Positions 2,954 to 64,000 of a stretch of 64,000 nt of DNA are shown in pieces (positions within the stretch are counted from its first letter, which is position 1; every line of letters starts with the position of its first letter). A program made the position numbers and the translations under genes. This stretch comes from Shigella phage SP21535, in sequence record PQ615101. One strand, 5' to 3'. Below the pieces are notes generated by a model. The model was not told where the DNA came from, did not search any database, and saw only the letters and a program-made list of their open reading frames with translations.

Positions 2954-3094
2954 ATGATATTTCTTGGATATGTGATACTTTTTCTTGCATTTTATCTATT
3001 CACTAGAGCATGCTGGATTGGGTTCTTTAGCACTTCAGATGGATTTATTTCAATAATTTTATTTTGCATTTCAATGACGGTTCTTGATATATGA
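2954..3094 (+). CDS. small hydrophobic protein (46 aa)
   Basis: ATG 2954; hydrophobic MIFLGYVILFLAFYLF...; stop overlaps gene 47 start (ATGA). Confidence 0.3.
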   Translation: MIFLGYVILFLAFYLFTRACWIGFFSTSDGFISIILFCISMTVLDI

Positions 3095-4110
3095 AAATTT
3101 TAAATTTAGGTGATTGGCATTTAGGCGTTAAAGCTGATGATGAATGGATTCGCGGTATTCAAATTGATGGAATTAAACAAGCAATAGAATATTCTAAGAA
3201 AAATGGAATTACTACCTGGATTCAATACGGTGATATTTTTGATGTACGAAAAGCGATCACGCATAAAACTATGGAGTTTGCTCGTGAAATAGTTCAAATG
3301 CTTGATGACGTTGGAATCACATTACATACTATTGTAGGAAATCACGATCTCCACTATAAAAATGTAATGCATCCAAATGCCTCTACTGAGCTTTTGGCTA
3401 AATATCCTAATGTTAAAGTATATGATAAGCCTACTACAGTAGATTTTGACGGATGTTTGATTGATTTAATTCCTTGGATGTGCGAAGAAAATACTGGTGA
3501 AATTCTTGAACACATCAAAACTTCATCTGCTTCTTTTTGTGTTGGTCACTGGGAGTTGAATGGATTTTATTTTTATAAAGGAATGAAATCTCACGGTCTT
3601 GAACCTGATTTCCTTAAGACTTATAAAGAGGTGTGGTCTGGTCACTTCCATACTATCTCTGAGGCTGCTAACGTCAGATATATTGGGACACCATGGACAC
3701 TAACTGCAGGTGACGAGAATGACCCTCGCGGGTTCTGGATGTTTGATACAGAAACAGAACGAATGGAATTTATTCCAAACAACACTACCTGGCATCGTCG
3801 AATTCAATATCCATTTAAGGGAAAAATTGACTATAAAGATTTTACAAATCTGTCAGTACGTGTTATAGTAACTGAGGTAGACAAAAATCTGACGAAGTTC
3901 GAATCTGAACTAGAAAAAGTTGTGCATTCATTACGAGTTGTGTCAAAGATTGATAACTCTGTCGAGTCAGATGATAGTGAAGAAGTTGAAGTTCAATCTC
4001 TTCAGACGTTGATGGAAGAATACATTAATGCAATTCCAGACATCACTGATTCTGATCGCGAAGCACTTATTCAATATGCAAATCAGTTATATGTAGAGGC
4101 AACACAATGA
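3091..4110 (+). CDS. 47: recombination endonuclease subunit gp47 (Mre11/SbcD-like)
   Basis: MKILNLGDWHLGVKADDEW... phosphoesterase motifs (GDxHL, GNHD); position between agt and 46. Confidence 0.9.
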   Translation: MKILNLGDWHLGVKADDEWIRGIQIDGIKQAIEYSKKNGITTWIQYGDIFDVRKAITHKTMEFAREIVQMLDDVGITLHTIVGNHDLHYKNVMHPNASTELLAKYPNVKVYDKPTTVDFDGCLIDLIPWMCEENTGEILEHIKTSSASFCVGHWELNGFYFYKGMKSHGLEPDFLKTYKEVWSGHFHTISEAANVRYIGTPWTLTAGDENDPRGFWMFDTETERMEFIPNNTTWHRRIQYPFKGKIDYKDFTNLSVRVIVTEVDKNLTKFESELEKVVHSLRVVSKIDNSVESDDSEEVEVQSLQTLMEEYINAIPDITDSDREALIQYANQLYVEATQ

Positions 4111-12459: not shown

Positions 12460-12489
12460 GTTTACATCCCCGTTCTTCCATGGTACTAT
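12460..12489 (+). promoter_or_regulatory. T4-type early promoter within a PeSL-like cassette
   Basis: GTTTAC -35, 18-bp spacer, TACTAT -10; followed by the conserved leader caactatcaactgatac...ggagaataaaATG. Confidence 0.6.
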
Positions 12490-32133: not shown

Positions 32134-32676
32134 ATGAAATTTAATTATAATCCTGAATACACTCCAAATCCGGTAGCTAAACTGATTGATTTTGATGTTG
32201 TAAGCACTTATGTATGCCCTGTTAAACCGCTGGAAATTAAGGAACCTACTATGACTACCGCTATTGAAATCGGCAAAACTTACAAACTGGTTGAACCTAA
32301 AATTAAAACTAATGCCTTGATTTCCGGCCATAAAACTCTGACTGTTGTTTTTGGCGAAGGCGAATTTATTGTTGAAGACTTTGAAAAAAGTAAATGGTTT
32401 ACTAAATCTTATATTGTCCACGGTCGTCGTTTAGACAATAACAAAATAGAGAAAATCCTGGTTTATGAAGAAGAGTTCATCCTGTTCCAAGAAGTTGAAG
32501 AACAAGACCCTACTGACCTTCTAACTCGTGCTGTAGCTATTAAGACCCCATTTGTTTCGGTCTGTGGTTGGGTAACAGACCAGTGGATTGAAGATGGCGT
32601 TGAACTTCTGAATGTTGTTCATGCAGGTGATTTTAGTGTAGTACCTCGTAGTGCAGTGGTAGCTATTTTGAATTAA
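32134..32676 (+). CDS. hypothetical protein (paralog pair member A)
   Basis: 180 aa; C-terminal TDQWIEDGVELLNVVHAGDFSVVP. Confidence 0.5.
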   Translation: MKFNYNPEYTPNPVAKLIDFDVVSTYVCPVKPLEIKEPTMTTAIEIGKTYKLVEPKIKTNALISGHKTLTVVFGEGEFIVEDFEKSKWFTKSYIVHGRRLDNNKIEKILVYEEEFILFQEVEEQDPTDLLTRAVAIKTPFVSVCGWVTDQWIEDGVELLNVVHAGDFSVVPRSAVVAILN

Positions 32677-33422: not shown

Positions 33423-33638
33423 ATGAAACGTAAAATTGTTCAGAATTGCACTAATGATGAATTTGAAGATGTATTATTTGATCCAAATTTGGTAGTAGTT
33501 CAAAAGGAACATACTAGCAAGTTTACTCACTTGACTTCTGTTTATGTGTATGAGAAAGTCGGTGATAAACAACCAATTTATGGCGTATTTCGTGAAATCA
33601 CTGAAGACGGTACAACTTACTGGAAGGAAATTTATTAA
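33423..33638 (+). CDS. hypothetical protein
   Basis: 71-codon ORF. Confidence 0.45.
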
Positions 33639-34063
33639 TGGCTATTAAATTTGAAGTTAATAAATGGTATCAATTTAAAAATAAACAAGCTCAAGAAAAA
33701 TTTATTAAATATCATACTGAAAACGGAATTTATGCACGACGTTTAGGTATGGAACCTTTTAGAGTTACAGATATTGACTATCTTGGTCGTCCTACTAAAC
33801 TTGTGACATCTAGTGGAAAATTGGCGTTATCTTCTGGTAAAGATATTTTGGATGAAGATTTTATCTGGCTTTCAGCGAGCGAAGCTGAATTCTTTGATGA
33901 AGTTGAAAATCCATACCAGGCAGCTGAAGAGCAAGAGCAGGAAGAGAAAGAGCAAGAACAAATAGAAGATTTCACAGAATTCCCGGTAATGAAAGTTACT
34001 ATTGAAAATAATGAACAAGCATGGTCCTTGTATCAGATGTTGAAAGCTCACTTTAAGGAATAA
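33638..34063 (+). CDS. hypothetical protein with acidic Glu/Gln-rich segment
   Basis: 141 aa; [18 protein letters not shown]. Confidence 0.5.
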
Positions 34064-41181: not shown

Positions 41182-41211
41182 GTTTACAAGACTGTTCTTC
41201 CGTGGTACTAT
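41182..41211 (+). promoter_or_regulatory. T4-type early promoter in PeSL-like cassette
   Basis: aaaaagttGTTTAC, 18-bp spacer, TACTAT, then ccctatcaactacggaggaacagaaaATG. Confidence 0.6.
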
Positions 41212-59697: not shown

Positions 59698-60347
59698 TTA
59701 AACTCCGCATGCCTGCTGGTGGTGAAAGATACATTGATGGTAAATCAGTTTATAAATTATACTTAATGATAAAACAACATATGAATGGAAAGTATGATGT
59801 AATTAAGTATAATTGGTGCATGCGGGTGTCTGATGCCGCTTATCAAAAGCGAAGGGATAAGTATTTTTTCCAGAAGTTATCAGAAAAATATAAATTAAAG
59901 GAACTTGCTTTAATCTTTATAAGTAATTTGGTTGCTAACCAAGATGCTTGGATTGGTGACATCTCTGACGCTGATGCACTTGTGTTTTATCGTGAATATA
60001 TCGGACGCTTAAAGCAAATTAAATTTAAGTTTGAAGAAGATATTCGCAACATTTATTATTTTAGTAAAAAAGTTGAAGTTTCTGCTTTTAAAGAAATCTT
60101 TGAATATAATCCAAAGGTTCAGTCAAGTTATATTTTTAAACTACTTCAATCGAATATAATTTCGTTTGAGACGTTTATCTTGCTTGATTCGTTTTTAAAT
60201 ATAATTGATAAACATGATGAACAGACTGATAATTTAGTCTGGAATAATTATTCTATAAAGTTAAAGGCTTATAGAAAAATTTTAAATATTGATTCACAGA
60301 AAGCTAAAAATGTTTTCATTGAAACTGTGAAATCTTGTAAGTATTAA
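59694..60347 (+). CDS. 59: helicase loader gp59
   Basis: 217 aa immediately upstream of gene 32. Confidence 0.85.
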   Translation: MIKLRMPAGGERYIDGKSVYKLYLMIKQHMNGKYDVIKYNWCMRVSDAAYQKRRDKYFFQKLSEKYKLKELALIFISNLVANQDAWIGDISDADALVFYREYIGRLKQIKFKFEEDIRNIYYFSKKVEVSAFKEIFEYNPKVQSSYIFKLLQSNIISFETFILLDSFLNIIDKHDEQTDNLVWNNYSIKLKAYRKILNIDSQKAKNVFIETVKSCKY

Positions 60348-60355
60348 TTGCTTAT

Positions 60356-60363
60356 TATAAATA
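60356..60363 (+). promoter_or_regulatory. candidate late promoter upstream of gene 32
   Basis: Exact TATAAATA about 85 nt upstream of gene 32 ATG. Confidence 0.45.
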
Positions 60364-60380
60364 GATTATAATTATCTCAC

Positions 60381-60446
60381 TGACCAGCTATGAGGTCATA
60401 CATCGTCATAGCACCAACTGTTAATTAAATTAAAAAGGAAATAAAA
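60381..60446 (+). promoter_or_regulatory. gene 32 translational operator (pseudoknot plus A/U-rich tract)
   Basis: Interleaved pairings TGACC/GGTCA and GCTATGA/TCATAGC, followed by UUAAUUAAAUUAAAAAGGAAAUAAAA up to the ATG. Confidence 0.6.
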
Positions 60447-61382
60447 ATGTTTAAACGTAAATCTACTGCTGAACTCGCTGCACAAATGGCTAAACTGGCT
60501 GGAAATAAAGGTGGTTTTTCTTCTGAAGATAAAGGCGAGTGGAAACTGAAACTCGATAATGCGGGTAACGGTCAAGCAGTAATTCGTTTTCTTCCGTCTA
60601 AAAATGATGAACAAGCACCATTTGCACTTCTTGTAAATCACGGTTTCAAGAAAAATGGTAAATGGTATATCGAAACATGCTCATCTACCTACGGTGATTA
60701 CGATTCTTGTCCAGTATGTCAGTACATCAGTAAAAATGATTTGTATAATACTGACAATAAAGAGTACGGTCTTGTTAAACGTAAAACTTCTTACTGGGCT
60801 AACATTCTTGTTGTAAAAGACCCAGCTGCTCCAGAAAATGAAGGTAAAGTATTTAAATACCGCTTCGGTAAGAAAATCTGGGATAAAATCAATGCAATGA
60901 TTGCAGTTGATGTTGAAATGGGTGAAACTCCGGTTGATGTAACTTGTCCGTGGGAAGGTGCTAACTTTGTACTGAAAGTTAAACAAGTTTCTGGTTTTAG
61001 TAACTACGACGAATCTAAATTCCTGAATCAATCTGCGATTCCAAACATTGATGATGAATCTTTCCAGAAAGAACTGTTCGAACAAATGGTTGACCTTTCT
61101 GAAATGACTTCTAAAGATAAATTCAAATCGTTTGAAGAATTGAGCACTAAGTTCAGTCAAGTTATGGGAACTGCTGCTATGGGCGGTGCCGCAGCAACTG
61201 CCGCTAAGAAAGCTGATAAAGTTGCTGATGATTTGGATGCATTCAATGTTGATGACTTCAAAACAAAAACTGAAGATGATTTTATGAGCTCAAGCTCTGG
61301 CAGTTCATCTAGTGCTGATGACACGGACCTCTCTGTTCTTCTATGGTACTATACAACTATCGGCAATACTGCTGATGATTAA
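60447..61382 (+). CDS. 32: single-stranded DNA-binding protein gp32 (variant C-terminus)
   Basis: [24 protein letters not shown]...; zinc-binding Cys/His cluster; Ser-rich SSSSGSSSS tract; last 16 aa encoded by PeSL-like sequence. Confidence 0.9.
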
Positions 61383-61395
61383 AGAGGAAAATAAT

Positions 61396-61623
61396 ATGGC
61401 TAAAGTTGATATTGACATCGTTGATTTTGAATATATTGAAGAAATTATTCGTAATCGTTATCCTGAACTTAGTATCGCAAGCGTACAAGATTCTAAGTTT
61501 TGGAGTATTCAAATCGTTATTGAAGGTCCTCTTGAAGACCTCACCCGCTTTATGGCTAATGAATATTGCGATGGCATGGATGCTGAAGACGCAGAATTTT
61601 ATATGGGACTGATTGAACAATAA
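61396..61623 (+). CDS. hypothetical acidic protein
   Basis: 75 aa; RBS AAGAGGAAA. Confidence 0.5.
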
Positions 61624-61668
61624 TTATCAAGGGGCTATTACAGTCCCGTTAAAATGAGGAAAATCAAA

Positions 61669-62055
61669 ATGGAAATCGGCAAAAAATATGAGTTAAATCC
61701 ACACCGTATTAAATCTTTCATTGATATTAGTTCATCAAATGCTAATATGGTCAGCATCATTCAAGAAAATGGCGGTTGGTTTGAAGTTAAATCAATATCA
61801 AGTTTAGATGGCTTTGATTATGTAACCGAAATCATTTGTGCTAATGGCGAAATCTATAATGATGATGGCATAGGTGATGATTATTTTGAACTTAGTGAAG
61901 AAGAGTTTTATTGTTTCCGCGAGTATAAAGAACCGACTTCTGAAGAAGATGAAGTCGAAGACAAGGTTTCTGGCGTAACAAAAATTCACTGCATTGTAGA
62001 CGAAAACAATGTAGATGAAATCATTGAACTTTTGCGAAAAACTTTTAAGGCCTAA
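61669..62055 (+). CDS. hypothetical acidic protein
   Basis: 128 aa; RBS GAGGAAAA; alternative upstream ATG 61654. Confidence 0.5.
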   Translation: MEIGKKYELNPHRIKSFIDISSSNANMVSIIQENGGWFEVKSISSLDGFDYVTEIICANGEIYNDDGIGDDYFELSEEEFYCFREYKEPTSEEDEVEDKVSGVTKIHCIVDENNVDEIIELLRKTFKA

Positions 62056-62056
62056 T

Positions 62057-62317
62057 ATGACTAAAGATGATTTCCTGGATGCGGTAGAAAAAGCTAGTGA
62101 GAAATTTGAAGTGATGGGTGTACGGGTCCATAAAGACAGAAATTACGGACTCGATATTCAAACGTATTCGTTATGGCTTGTGGGTGAACACAGTCTTGTG
62201 ACCAATTTAGTTATGGGTGTCGATACCTATCCTCTATTGGTTAAGTTCAGAAGTATGGAAAAGGCTACTAAAGAAATGATTAAGCTTGGTAAGTGGCTCG
62301 ATAAAATTCAAAAATAA
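62057..62317 (+). CDS. hypothetical protein
   Basis: 86-codon ORF, near-contiguous with the previous ORF. Confidence 0.45.
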   Translation: MTKDDFLDAVEKASEKFEVMGVRVHKDRNYGLDIQTYSLWLVGEHSLVTNLVMGVDTYPLLVKFRSMEKATKEMIKLGKWLDKIQK

Positions 62318-62319
62318 TT

Positions 62320-62349
62320 GTTTACAACGGGCTATGGTAGTGATACTAT
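62320..62349 (+). promoter_or_regulatory. T4-type early promoter in PeSL-like cassette
   Basis: GTTTAC, 18-bp spacer, TACTAT, then tagccttatcaactaaggagaataaaATG. Confidence 0.6.
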
Positions 62350-62374
62350 AGCCTTATCAACTAAGGAGAATAAA

Positions 62375-62617
62375 ATGAGATTACAACGCCAGAGCATTAA
62401 AGATTCAGAAGTTAGAGGTAAATGGTATTTTAATATCATCGGTAAAGATTTTGATCTCGTTGAAAAAGCCGAACATCTTTTACGTGATATGGGATGGGAA
62501 GATGAATGCGATGGATGCCCTCTTTATGAGGATGGAGAAAGCGCAGGATTCTGGATTTATCATTCTGACGTTGAACAGTTTAAAGCTGACTGGAAAATTG
62601 TGAAAAAGTCTGTTTGA
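62375..62617 (+). CDS. hypothetical protein
   Basis: 80 aa; ATG after ggagaataaa leader. Confidence 0.45.
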   Translation: MRLQRQSIKDSEVRGKWYFNIIGKDFDLVEKAEHLLRDMGWEDECDGCPLYEDGESAGFWIYHSDVEQFKADWKIVKKSV

Positions 62618-63410
<793 letters not shown>

Positions 63411-63411
<1 letters not shown>

Positions 63412-63959
63412 TGAAACAATACCAAGATTTAATTAAAGACATTTTTGAAAATGGCTATGAAACCGATGACCGAACAGGCACAGGAACAATTGCTTTGTTC
63501 GGTACTAAATTACGCTGGGATTTAACTAAAGGTTTTCCTGCAGTAACGACTAAGAAGCTCGCTTGGAAAGCTTGCATTGCTGAGCTTCTATGGTTTATTT
63601 CCGGTTCTACCAATGTTAATGATTTACGTCTTCGCACTCATGGTAGTCTTATTCAAGGTAAAACTATTTGGGACGATAACTATGAAAACCAGGCTAAAGA
63701 CCTAGGATATCATAGTGGTGAACTTGGTCCTATATACGGTAAACAATGGCGTGATTTCGGTGGTGTGGATCAATTAGTTGAAACTATTGATCGTATTAAA
63801 AAATTACCAACTGATCGACGTCAAATCGTTTCAGCATGGAATCCAGCTGAAATCAATCAAATGGCATTACCGCCCTGTCATATGTTCTATCAGTTTAATG
63901 TGCGTAATGGTTATCTTGATTTACAATGGTACCAAAGAAGTGTAGATGTTTTCTTGGGT
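63411..63959 (+). CDS. td: thymidylate synthase, exon 1
   Basis: MKQYQDLIKDIFENGYETDDRTGTGT... ending ...YQRSVDVFLG immediately before intron; in-frame TAA is first intron triplet. Confidence 0.85.
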
Positions 63960-64000
63960 TAATTGAGGCCTGAGTATAAGGTGACTTATACTTGTAATCT
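63960..64000 (+). ncRNA. 5' end of td group I self-splicing intron (truncated by window edge)
   Basis: TAATTGAGGCCTGAGTATAAGGTGACTTATACTTGTAATCT matches the start of the T4 td intron as recalled. Confidence 0.6.

Follow-up and report, generated by a model that had tools for sequence, protein, structure and literature searches.

Identity of the four ORFs between gene 32 and frd

In the 64,000-nt stretch of Shigella phage SP21535 DNA analyzed here (PQ615101; hereafter the window), the four ORFs lying between gene 32 and frd are frd.3, frd.2, an additional ORF (ORF3) and frd.1, and the block is most probably the known set of small non-essential prereplicative genes that occupies this position in T-even phages. 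These genes have long been catalogued: the T4 map, Pfam and PHROGs have all listed them for years. The block is no new kind of element.

The segment of the window that contains them is that of a Tequatrovirus (T4-like), with the order rnh - dsbA - 33 - 59 - 32 - [four ORFs] - frd - [68-aa ORF] - td. The left boundary is gene 32, which encodes the ssDNA-binding protein (60447-61382, plus strand, 311 aa), and the right boundary is frd, encoding dihydrofolate reductase (62627-63208, plus strand). The sequence-only reading had described four unrecognized ORFs of 75, 128, 86 and 80 aa at this place, two of them strongly acidic. The sizes and the acidity were confirmed. All four ORFs are on the plus strand: ORF1 (61396-61623, 75 aa) has a pI of 4.05 and a net charge of -13, ORF2 (61669-62055, 128 aa) a pI of 4.25 and a net charge of -18, ORF3 (62057-62317, 86 aa) is neutral with a pI of 7.95, and ORF4 (62375-62617, 80 aa) is mildly acidic with a pI of 4.9.

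What did not hold was the description of these ORFs as unrecognized. ORF1 matched the Pfam family PF05798 (Phage_FRD3) over its full length, residues 1-75 on profile positions 1-75 of 75, with 135.2 bits and an E value of 1.1e-39 (gathering score, 28.1 bits). ORF2 matched PF03197 (FRD2) with residues 26-127 on profile positions 1-95 of 96 (132.3 bits, E 1e-38; gathering score, 29 bits), and ORF4 matched PF17438 (DUF5417) with 112.1 bits and an E value of 1.5e-32 (gathering score, 23.9 bits). The three are the T4 genes frd.3 (T4p242), frd.2 (T4p241) and frd.1 (T4p240), respectively, as the T4 record also shows: position, order and strand between 32 and frd are shared, and the identities to the T4 proteins are 97.3% for Frd.3, 96.9% for Frd.2 and 97.5% for Frd.1.

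For ORF3, neither a Pfam family nor an equivalent in T4 exists, and it belongs to the catalogued family phrog_4423, which it matched over its full length (1-86 of 86, E 2e-49). It is 98.8% identical to gp233 of RB27, and its homologues are annotated as hypothetical proteins in RB27, ZN18 and many other phages. When we searched 50,697 phage records by tblastn, matches were found in 731 records for Frd.3, 886 for Frd.2, 348 for ORF3 and 1,416 for Frd.1/DUF5417. The sequence-only reading had named, as the outcome that would speak against it, that all four ORFs match T4 frd.x proteins of established housekeeping function; three of them do match frd.x proteins, yet none of these three is established as a housekeeping protein.

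The window differs from T4 in several points. Between frd.2 and frd.1 it carries the additional 86-aa gene. A 22-codon hydrophobic mini-ORF that T4 has upstream of frd.1 is absent, the spacer between frd.1 and frd is 9 nt instead of 71 nt, and the window has lost both the gene 32 terminator and the -35 box from the promoter of frd.3.

Coding capacity and expression

All four ORFs are genuine genes. The T4 orthologues of ORF1, ORF2 and ORF4 have been detected as proteins. PHROG matches were obtained for every one of them, with E values of 1e-34 to 1e-49, and three of the four exceeded the Pfam gathering scores by about 100 bits. Good Shine-Dalgarno sequences precede ORF1 (AAAGAGGAAA), ORF2 (ATGAGGAAAA) and ORF4 (TAAGGAGAA, which includes GGAG). 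That of ORF3 is weak, and the ORF3 start lies one base past the frd.2 stop (TAA-T-ATG), which suggests that the translation of ORF3 is coupled to that of frd.2. The small size of the ORFs and the weak Shine-Dalgarno sequence of ORF3 are the only points that would favor chance or non-coding ORFs within an AT-rich intergenic stretch. The family matches, the conservation of the proteins down to 30-40% identity with indels kept in frame, the detection of the T4 products by proteomics and the confidently predicted fold of Frd.3 refute this explanation, to which we leave practically no chance.

In time-resolved omics data of T4, frd.2 and frd.3 were classified as early RNA and early protein, and frd.1 as early RNA and middle protein (PMC9697503 supplement). 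The detection of all three proteins means that all three genes are translated. The frd.3 mRNA also ranks with the most abundant of the T4 RNAs that carry an NAD cap (bioRxiv 10.1101/2024.04.04.588121). In the genome-wide knock-down by CRISPRi-ART, frd.1 (-0.46) and frd.3 (-0.49) were scored 'Not fit', and frd.2, with a marginal score of 0.83 (p 0.027), was the sole T4 gene of unknown function scored 'Fit' (PMC11879866). Amber mutants of frd.2 showed normal EOP (Kim et al. 2025, PMC12152347). Frd.1, Frd.2 and Frd.3 are dispensable or nearly so in T4, and early expression together with dispensability fits an accessory role.

Gene order and plasticity of the region

The alignment with T4, RB27 and ZN18 revealed five indel sites within 1.3 kb. 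These are the terminator/promoter region of gene 32; a hairpin behind frd.3, which is duplicated in RB27; ORF3, as about 265 nt that T4 does not have; an 84-nt segment with the 22-codon mini-ORF, which is present in T4 and RB27 and not in the window; and the frd.1-frd spacer, in which RB27 has two additional ORFs. In close relatives, a 1,399-nt query from the window extended over 1,433-2,384 nt, which shows that the region is plastic. ORF3 itself is present in some T4-like phages and absent from others.

On the other hand, the three named genes hold their order in distant Klebsiella T4-like phages. The order in HMGUkp2 is 32 - FRD3 - DUF5417 - frd, and that in KPV15 is 32 - … - FRD3 fragment - FRD2 - DUF5417 - … - frd. 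The order 32-FRD3-(FRD2)-DUF5417-frd-td is common to Tequatrovirus, Jiaodavirus and another Klebsiella Straboviridae phage. The description of the region as plastic was thus correct in part, but frd.3, frd.2 and frd.1 are not hyperplastic ORFans; they behave like quasi-core genes, and what varies is the inserts between them.

Frd.2 and the GoF family

ORF2 and the GoF protein of the window (33638-34063) both matched phrog_622, with E values of 5.9e-46 and 9.9e-40, respectively. ORF2 also matched a goF-annotated PHROG weakly (E 6e-4), and the pairwise BLAST between Frd.2 and GoF was insignificant (E = 8). Frd.2, GoF and MotB.1 have been described as one family with an LSm/SH3-like β-barrel, an N-terminal bent five-stranded antiparallel β-sheet that was modelled for T4 Frd.2 (PMC12152347), and ORF2, being 97% identical, is the orthologue of this T4 protein. 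The layout of GoF and ORF2 is alike, consisting of the barrel, an acidic linker and a C-terminal helix ending in …FK, a likeness for which the alignment alone is not significant.

The closest neighbors of the predicted Frd.2 barrel are FeoA/SH3-like (PMC12152347), so that protein binding by Frd.2 is as plausible as RNA binding. In a reporter assay of GoF and MotB.1, the wild-type proteins had no effect on RNA, and mRNA was stabilized only by the mutant GoF(D25Y) (PMC12152347). Within the family, RNA stabilization is thus known only for this mutant. Taken together, Frd.2 would be a paralogue of GoF with a modelled LSm-like fold, and this one published functional lead points to RNA metabolism, not to anti-defence.

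Frd.3, ORF3 and Frd.1

The predicted structure of Frd.3 (pLDDT 94.4) is a small acidic α+β domain of the ferredoxin-like type. The neighbors of the model are generic ferredoxin-like folds, with structural homologues in T4-like phages of Erwinia, Serratia and Klebsiella. A fusion of gp32 with Frd.3 was suspected, since phrog_1764 has 391 positions and Frd.3 falls on the last 75. This idea was rejected: none of the Frd.3 homologues found exceeded 99 aa, and in the window frd.3 is read in another frame than gene 32.

The family of ORF3 comprises 21 clusters at 90% identity. An exhaustive profile search of 1.84 billion proteins yielded only 12 representative clusters, all of them phage-like and of similar size. 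The family occurs in Tequatrovirus, Phapecoctavirus, Christensenvirus, Webervirus and a Pantoea phage, and in the three inspected loci that are not T4-like its neighborhood consists mostly of unannotated small ORFs. From this distribution, ORF3 appears to be a mobile accessory early gene. It had no informative structural relative; phrog_4423 as a family has no Pfam model, solved structure or informative fold neighbor. A dsRBD was also considered for ORF3 and dropped, as ORF3 did not show an α-β-β-β-α fold with structural similarity to solved dsRBDs.

Frd.1/DUF5417 has, in the alignment, the invariant motif C-D-x-C-P-x-Y-E-D-G…G-F-W-I, which the family members from Drexlerviridae share. In two Weberviruses, an ORF3-like gene and a DUF5417 gene share, in different genomes, the first-gene slot after a divergent early promoter, an anecdotal observation from two genomes. 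A linkage of ORF3 and DUF5417 outside the T4-like phages was also considered and rejected, as Webervirus KOX1 does not have the two genes side by side. The four families are not paralogous to one another either (hhalign probabilities ≤ 2%), and neither the single sequences nor the profiles of the four families matched solved structures at E ≤ 0.1.

Possible functions

We infer the mechanistic part of our reading from fold and family, and the following mechanisms, tentative as they are, seem the most likely. Frd.2, with the three-part layout described above, might act after transcription, its target being either RNA or a host protein that handles RNA. It is conceivable that Frd.3, a compact and very acidic ferredoxin-like domain with no catalytic signature, binds and modulates a basic or nucleic-acid-binding partner. 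As for Frd.1, with its invariant CxxC-P-x-YEDG, and ORF3, they could possibly be small accessory proteins of the binder type that are traded between phage lineages.

Two other explanations were weighed against accessory genes of this kind. One or more of the proteins might be effectors of anti-defence or host take-over, inhibitors of an immune system or of a housekeeping machine of the host, that seem dispensable on K-12 or B only because their target is absent there. Their early expression in T4, their dispensability on laboratory hosts and the strong acidity of Frd.3 and Frd.2 agree with this idea, which nevertheless seems unlikely to us. It is favored mainly by the mobility of ORF3 and DUF5417 across families: the two are found in the unrelated Phapecoctavirus and Drexlerviridae, within small early-gene arrays, and they take the same first-gene slot in the two Weberviruses. 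Spread across families in such arrays is typical of horizontally traded accessory genes. However, none of the four has a sequence or structural match to a characterized anti-defence or take-over protein among solved structures, PADLOC and NCBIfam, none of which is a dedicated anti-defence library; for PADLOC and NCBIfam there was no match of any kind. The order of Frd.3, Frd.2 and Frd.1 next to gene 32 is held across genera, as expected of quasi-core genes rather than of arms-race cargo, and the Frd.3 fold as modelled would be ferredoxin-like and not elongated in the manner of acidic, B-DNA-mimicking anti-restriction proteins of the Ocr, ArdA or Arn type. In the literature we found no toxicity or anti-defence screen reporting frd.x and no mention of DUF5417, PF17438 or PF05798; the sole match for PF03197 was an unrelated Entamoeba genome paper.

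The position between 32 and frd-td-nrd would also be consistent with auxiliary factors of replication or nucleotide synthesis, for example small acidic adaptors that link gp32 and the dNTP enzymes. Such a role, for which the conserved order of the genes from 32 to td, the early co-expression with frd and the marginal fitness effect of the frd.2 knock-down can be cited, is in our opinion very improbable. Gene order in the core modules of T4-like phages is conserved generally, so that linkage to 32 and frd is weak evidence, and frd.2 amber mutants plate normally while the knock-downs of frd.1 and frd.3 are neutral. Moreover, in Drexlerviridae, with genomes of about 50 kb, the inspected neighbors of DUF5417 and ORF3 are small hypothetical ORFs and not 32 or frd, and no domain that points to nucleotide or DNA binding was found. 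The best-supported reading of the block is that of the known, individually dispensable frd genes of T-even phages.

As a speculation to which we give little credit, ORF3 and/or Frd.1 may be horizontally traded early effectors, of counter-defence or take-over, that move among T4-like Straboviridae, Phapecoctavirus and T1-like Drexlerviridae and occupy equivalent first-expressed slots. If this were true, phages that differ widely would rely on one small protein family to disable a single target in enterobacteria. A function found for Frd.2, Frd.3, ORF3 or DUF5417 would apply to hundreds of T4-like, rV5-like and T1-like phages that are therapeutic candidates. The block is of little weight as a discovery. 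Its residual value is that of a pointer, to frd.2 as a 'Fit' gene, to the NAD-capped mRNA of frd.3, and to the presence of ORF3 and DUF5417 across families.

Promoters and hairpins within the block

The sequence-only reading had further proposed that the four ORFs are bracketed by PeSL-like cassettes. The promoter consensus of PeSL in T4/PST-type phages is TTTACW-N17-TAYWAT (PMC4122927, Comeau et al. 2014), and the window has 13 sites that conform to it, all on the plus strand, against 0.39 expected. One of them is an intact T4-type, σ70-like early promoter, TTTACA-N17-TACTAT preceded by TG, at 62321-62349 (plus strand) between ORF3 and ORF4. From its match to the consensus and its position, this promoter is expected to drive frd.1 and the genes downstream.

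An 11-bp hairpin at 62329-62354 (plus strand; -15.6 kcal/mol, z -3.25) extends over the spacer and the -10 box of this promoter. Its T4 equivalent has -18.4 kcal/mol, and the stem is preserved in T4 by paired changes (GGCTAT/ATAGCC vs GGGTAG/TTACCC). A second hairpin, of 6 bp, is located past the frd.3 stop at 61631-61647 (plus strand; -9.3 kcal/mol, z -2.06), with no U-tract and no promoter; it is the one duplicated in RB27, it is conserved with changes, and its equivalent in T4 has -13.5 kcal/mol.

Compared with the PeSL of T4-type phages (Arbiol et al. 2010; Comeau et al. 2014, PMC4122927), the element at 62321-62349 fits the promoter consensus, has a stem-loop and adjoins the ORF3 indel. 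It is also located at indel boundaries: the ORF3 indel ends at the -35 box, which matches the prediction of the PeSL model, and the 84-nt mini-ORF indel starts right after the hairpin. In PeSL, however, a terminator-like stem-loop stands directly 5' of the promoter, whereas the hairpin in the window overlaps the spacer and the -10 box. A terminator scan of 60300-63500 found no site, neither hairpin has a U-tract, and the gene 32 terminator is deleted. Upstream of ORF1 the usual cassette would comprise this terminator hairpin and an early promoter, and the promoter is reduced to TGG-TACTAT. Downstream of ORF4 there are merely 9 nt and then frd, with no cassette. The proposal thus holds only in part: the one intact promoter with a hairpin lies inside the block, the upstream cassette is a broken, degraded half and no cassette follows ORF4, so that the block is not bracketed.

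A deletion at the junction of gene 32 and frd.3

Between two ACCT tetranucleotides the window lacks 105 nt that DCP2, T4 and RB27 have, and the alignments with these phages place the junction, with its ACCT microhomology, at 61327-61330 (plus strand). The nearest relative, DCP2, is 99.6% identical. The segment removed comprised the last 7 codons and the stop of gene 32, the hairpin of its terminator, and the -35 box (TTTACA) of the early promoter that precedes frd.3. As a result of the deletion, the C-terminal tail of gp32 is altered, its last seven residues being replaced. The junction as one contiguous match was found in no phage record.

Comparison with the intact promoters of T4 and RB27 showed that what is left of the frd.3 early promoter is TGG + TACTAT at 61344-61352 (plus strand), that is, an extended -10 with no -35, or half a PeSL. 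The cassette of spacer and -10 in this remnant recurs at 12461 and 41183. Since the deletion took both the gene 32 terminator and the -35 box, frd.3, frd.2 and ORF3 have no intact early promoter of their own. Their transcription would probably come from read-through of gene 32, from the residual extended -10, or from both.

This deletion is the most unusual thing near the block. It represents a natural experiment by which the dispensability of the C-terminal tip of gp32 and of the regulatory cassette between 32 and frd.3 could be gauged.

Deletion at the end of gene 32

A comparison of the end of gene 32 with DCP2, T4 and RB27 showed a deletion of 105 nt in the window phage, with its junction at 61327-61330 (within 61320-61395) and the microhomology ACCT at the flanks. 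The deletion removes residues 295-301 of gp32 (DDLLNDL) and the stop codon, and it also takes away the terminator hairpin of gene 32 together with the -35 box from which the early promoter of frd.3 starts. The resulting gp32 is 311 aa long and has an altered C-terminal end, while its Dda-binding helix, which consists of residues 248-270 (PMC11551737), is unaffected.

The deletion may be genuine, or it may have arisen in the assembly. In the best 15 of 499 matching phage records, we saw no contiguous deletion junction, because the match across this region fell into two pieces in all 15. The gene-32 end of ZN18 carries a shorter, independent deletion at the same spot, and its gp32 ends with …DTDLFQKIFS.

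T4 has the homing-endonuclease gene segG between genes 59 and 32, whereas segG is absent from this interval of the window (60348-60446). The spacer of about 100 nt holds a late-promoter-like box, TATAAATA, and the AU-rich leader of gene 32.

Early promoters, hairpin and mini-ORF

The truncated frd.3 promoter remains at 61330-61352, where the spacer and the -10 box are kept. The early promoters at 12461-12489 and 41183-41211 have this spacer and -10 in common with it (…CGTTCTTCCATGGTACTAT and …CTGTTCTTCCGTGGTACTAT). The two promoters and the frd.3 remnant are dispersed, near-identical cassettes of the type proposed to mediate PeSL recombination. All sites in the window that fit TTTACW-N17-TAYWAT (13 of 13) lie on the + strand.

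At frd.1, a hairpin (62329-62354) overlaps the spacer and the -10 box of the early promoter. The hairpin is kept in T4 (L001, the T4 locus, 3090-3150, - strand) through compensatory changes (GGCTAT…ATAGCC versus GGGTAG…TTACCC). These compensatory changes between the window phage and T4 suggest that selection acts on the hairpin structure itself, whether in the DNA or in RNA made by read-through. In the interval that separates this promoter from frd.1, T4 (L001, around 3010-3090, - strand) and RB27 (L003) possess an unannotated, hydrophobic mini-ORF of 22 codons, MFAPYIMAAVMLVCLYLLIKAC, with its own Shine-Dalgarno sequence; this mini-ORF is precisely missing from the window and from ZN18.

Relatives of the block elsewhere

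The ORF3 family and DUF5417, the family of Frd.1, were also found in Weberviruses. Two of these phages differ in the genes that come first behind the divergent early promoter: Klebsiella phage KOX1 (L005, 2591-3939) has an ORF3-family gene there, inside a four-gene insert, and GML-KpCol1 (L008, 4689-5282) has a DUF5417 gene. The ORFs next downstream form a similar size series in both phages (64, 58, 125 and 75 aa). From these two genomes, it may be that a single early slot is filled by one family or the other.

In the window phage itself, GoF (33638-34063, 141 aa) belongs to phrog_622, which is also the PHROG of Frd.2. A protein of 180 aa (32134-32676) matches phrog_2333; since it also shows a weak match to phrog_622 at residues 44-125 and a MotB-like match at its C-terminus, it may combine a barrel of the GoF/Frd.2 type with a domain of the MotB type.

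The frd-td junction

Whereas frd and td of T4 directly overlap, the window has a very basic ORF of 68 aa between them (63205-63411, pI 10.3, phrog_9550), which overlaps frd at its stop codon (ATGA) and td at its start. This ORF is present in 237 phage records, including those of Phapecoctavirus. By position, ORFs of about 117 aa in ZN18 and about 115 aa in RB27 occupy the same slot. Further downstream, at about 63960-64000, the reading frame of td is broken by TAATTGAGGCCTGAGTATAAGGTGACTTATACTTGTAATCT, which we take to match the 5'-terminal sequence of the group I intron in T4 td, and the window ends inside the intron.
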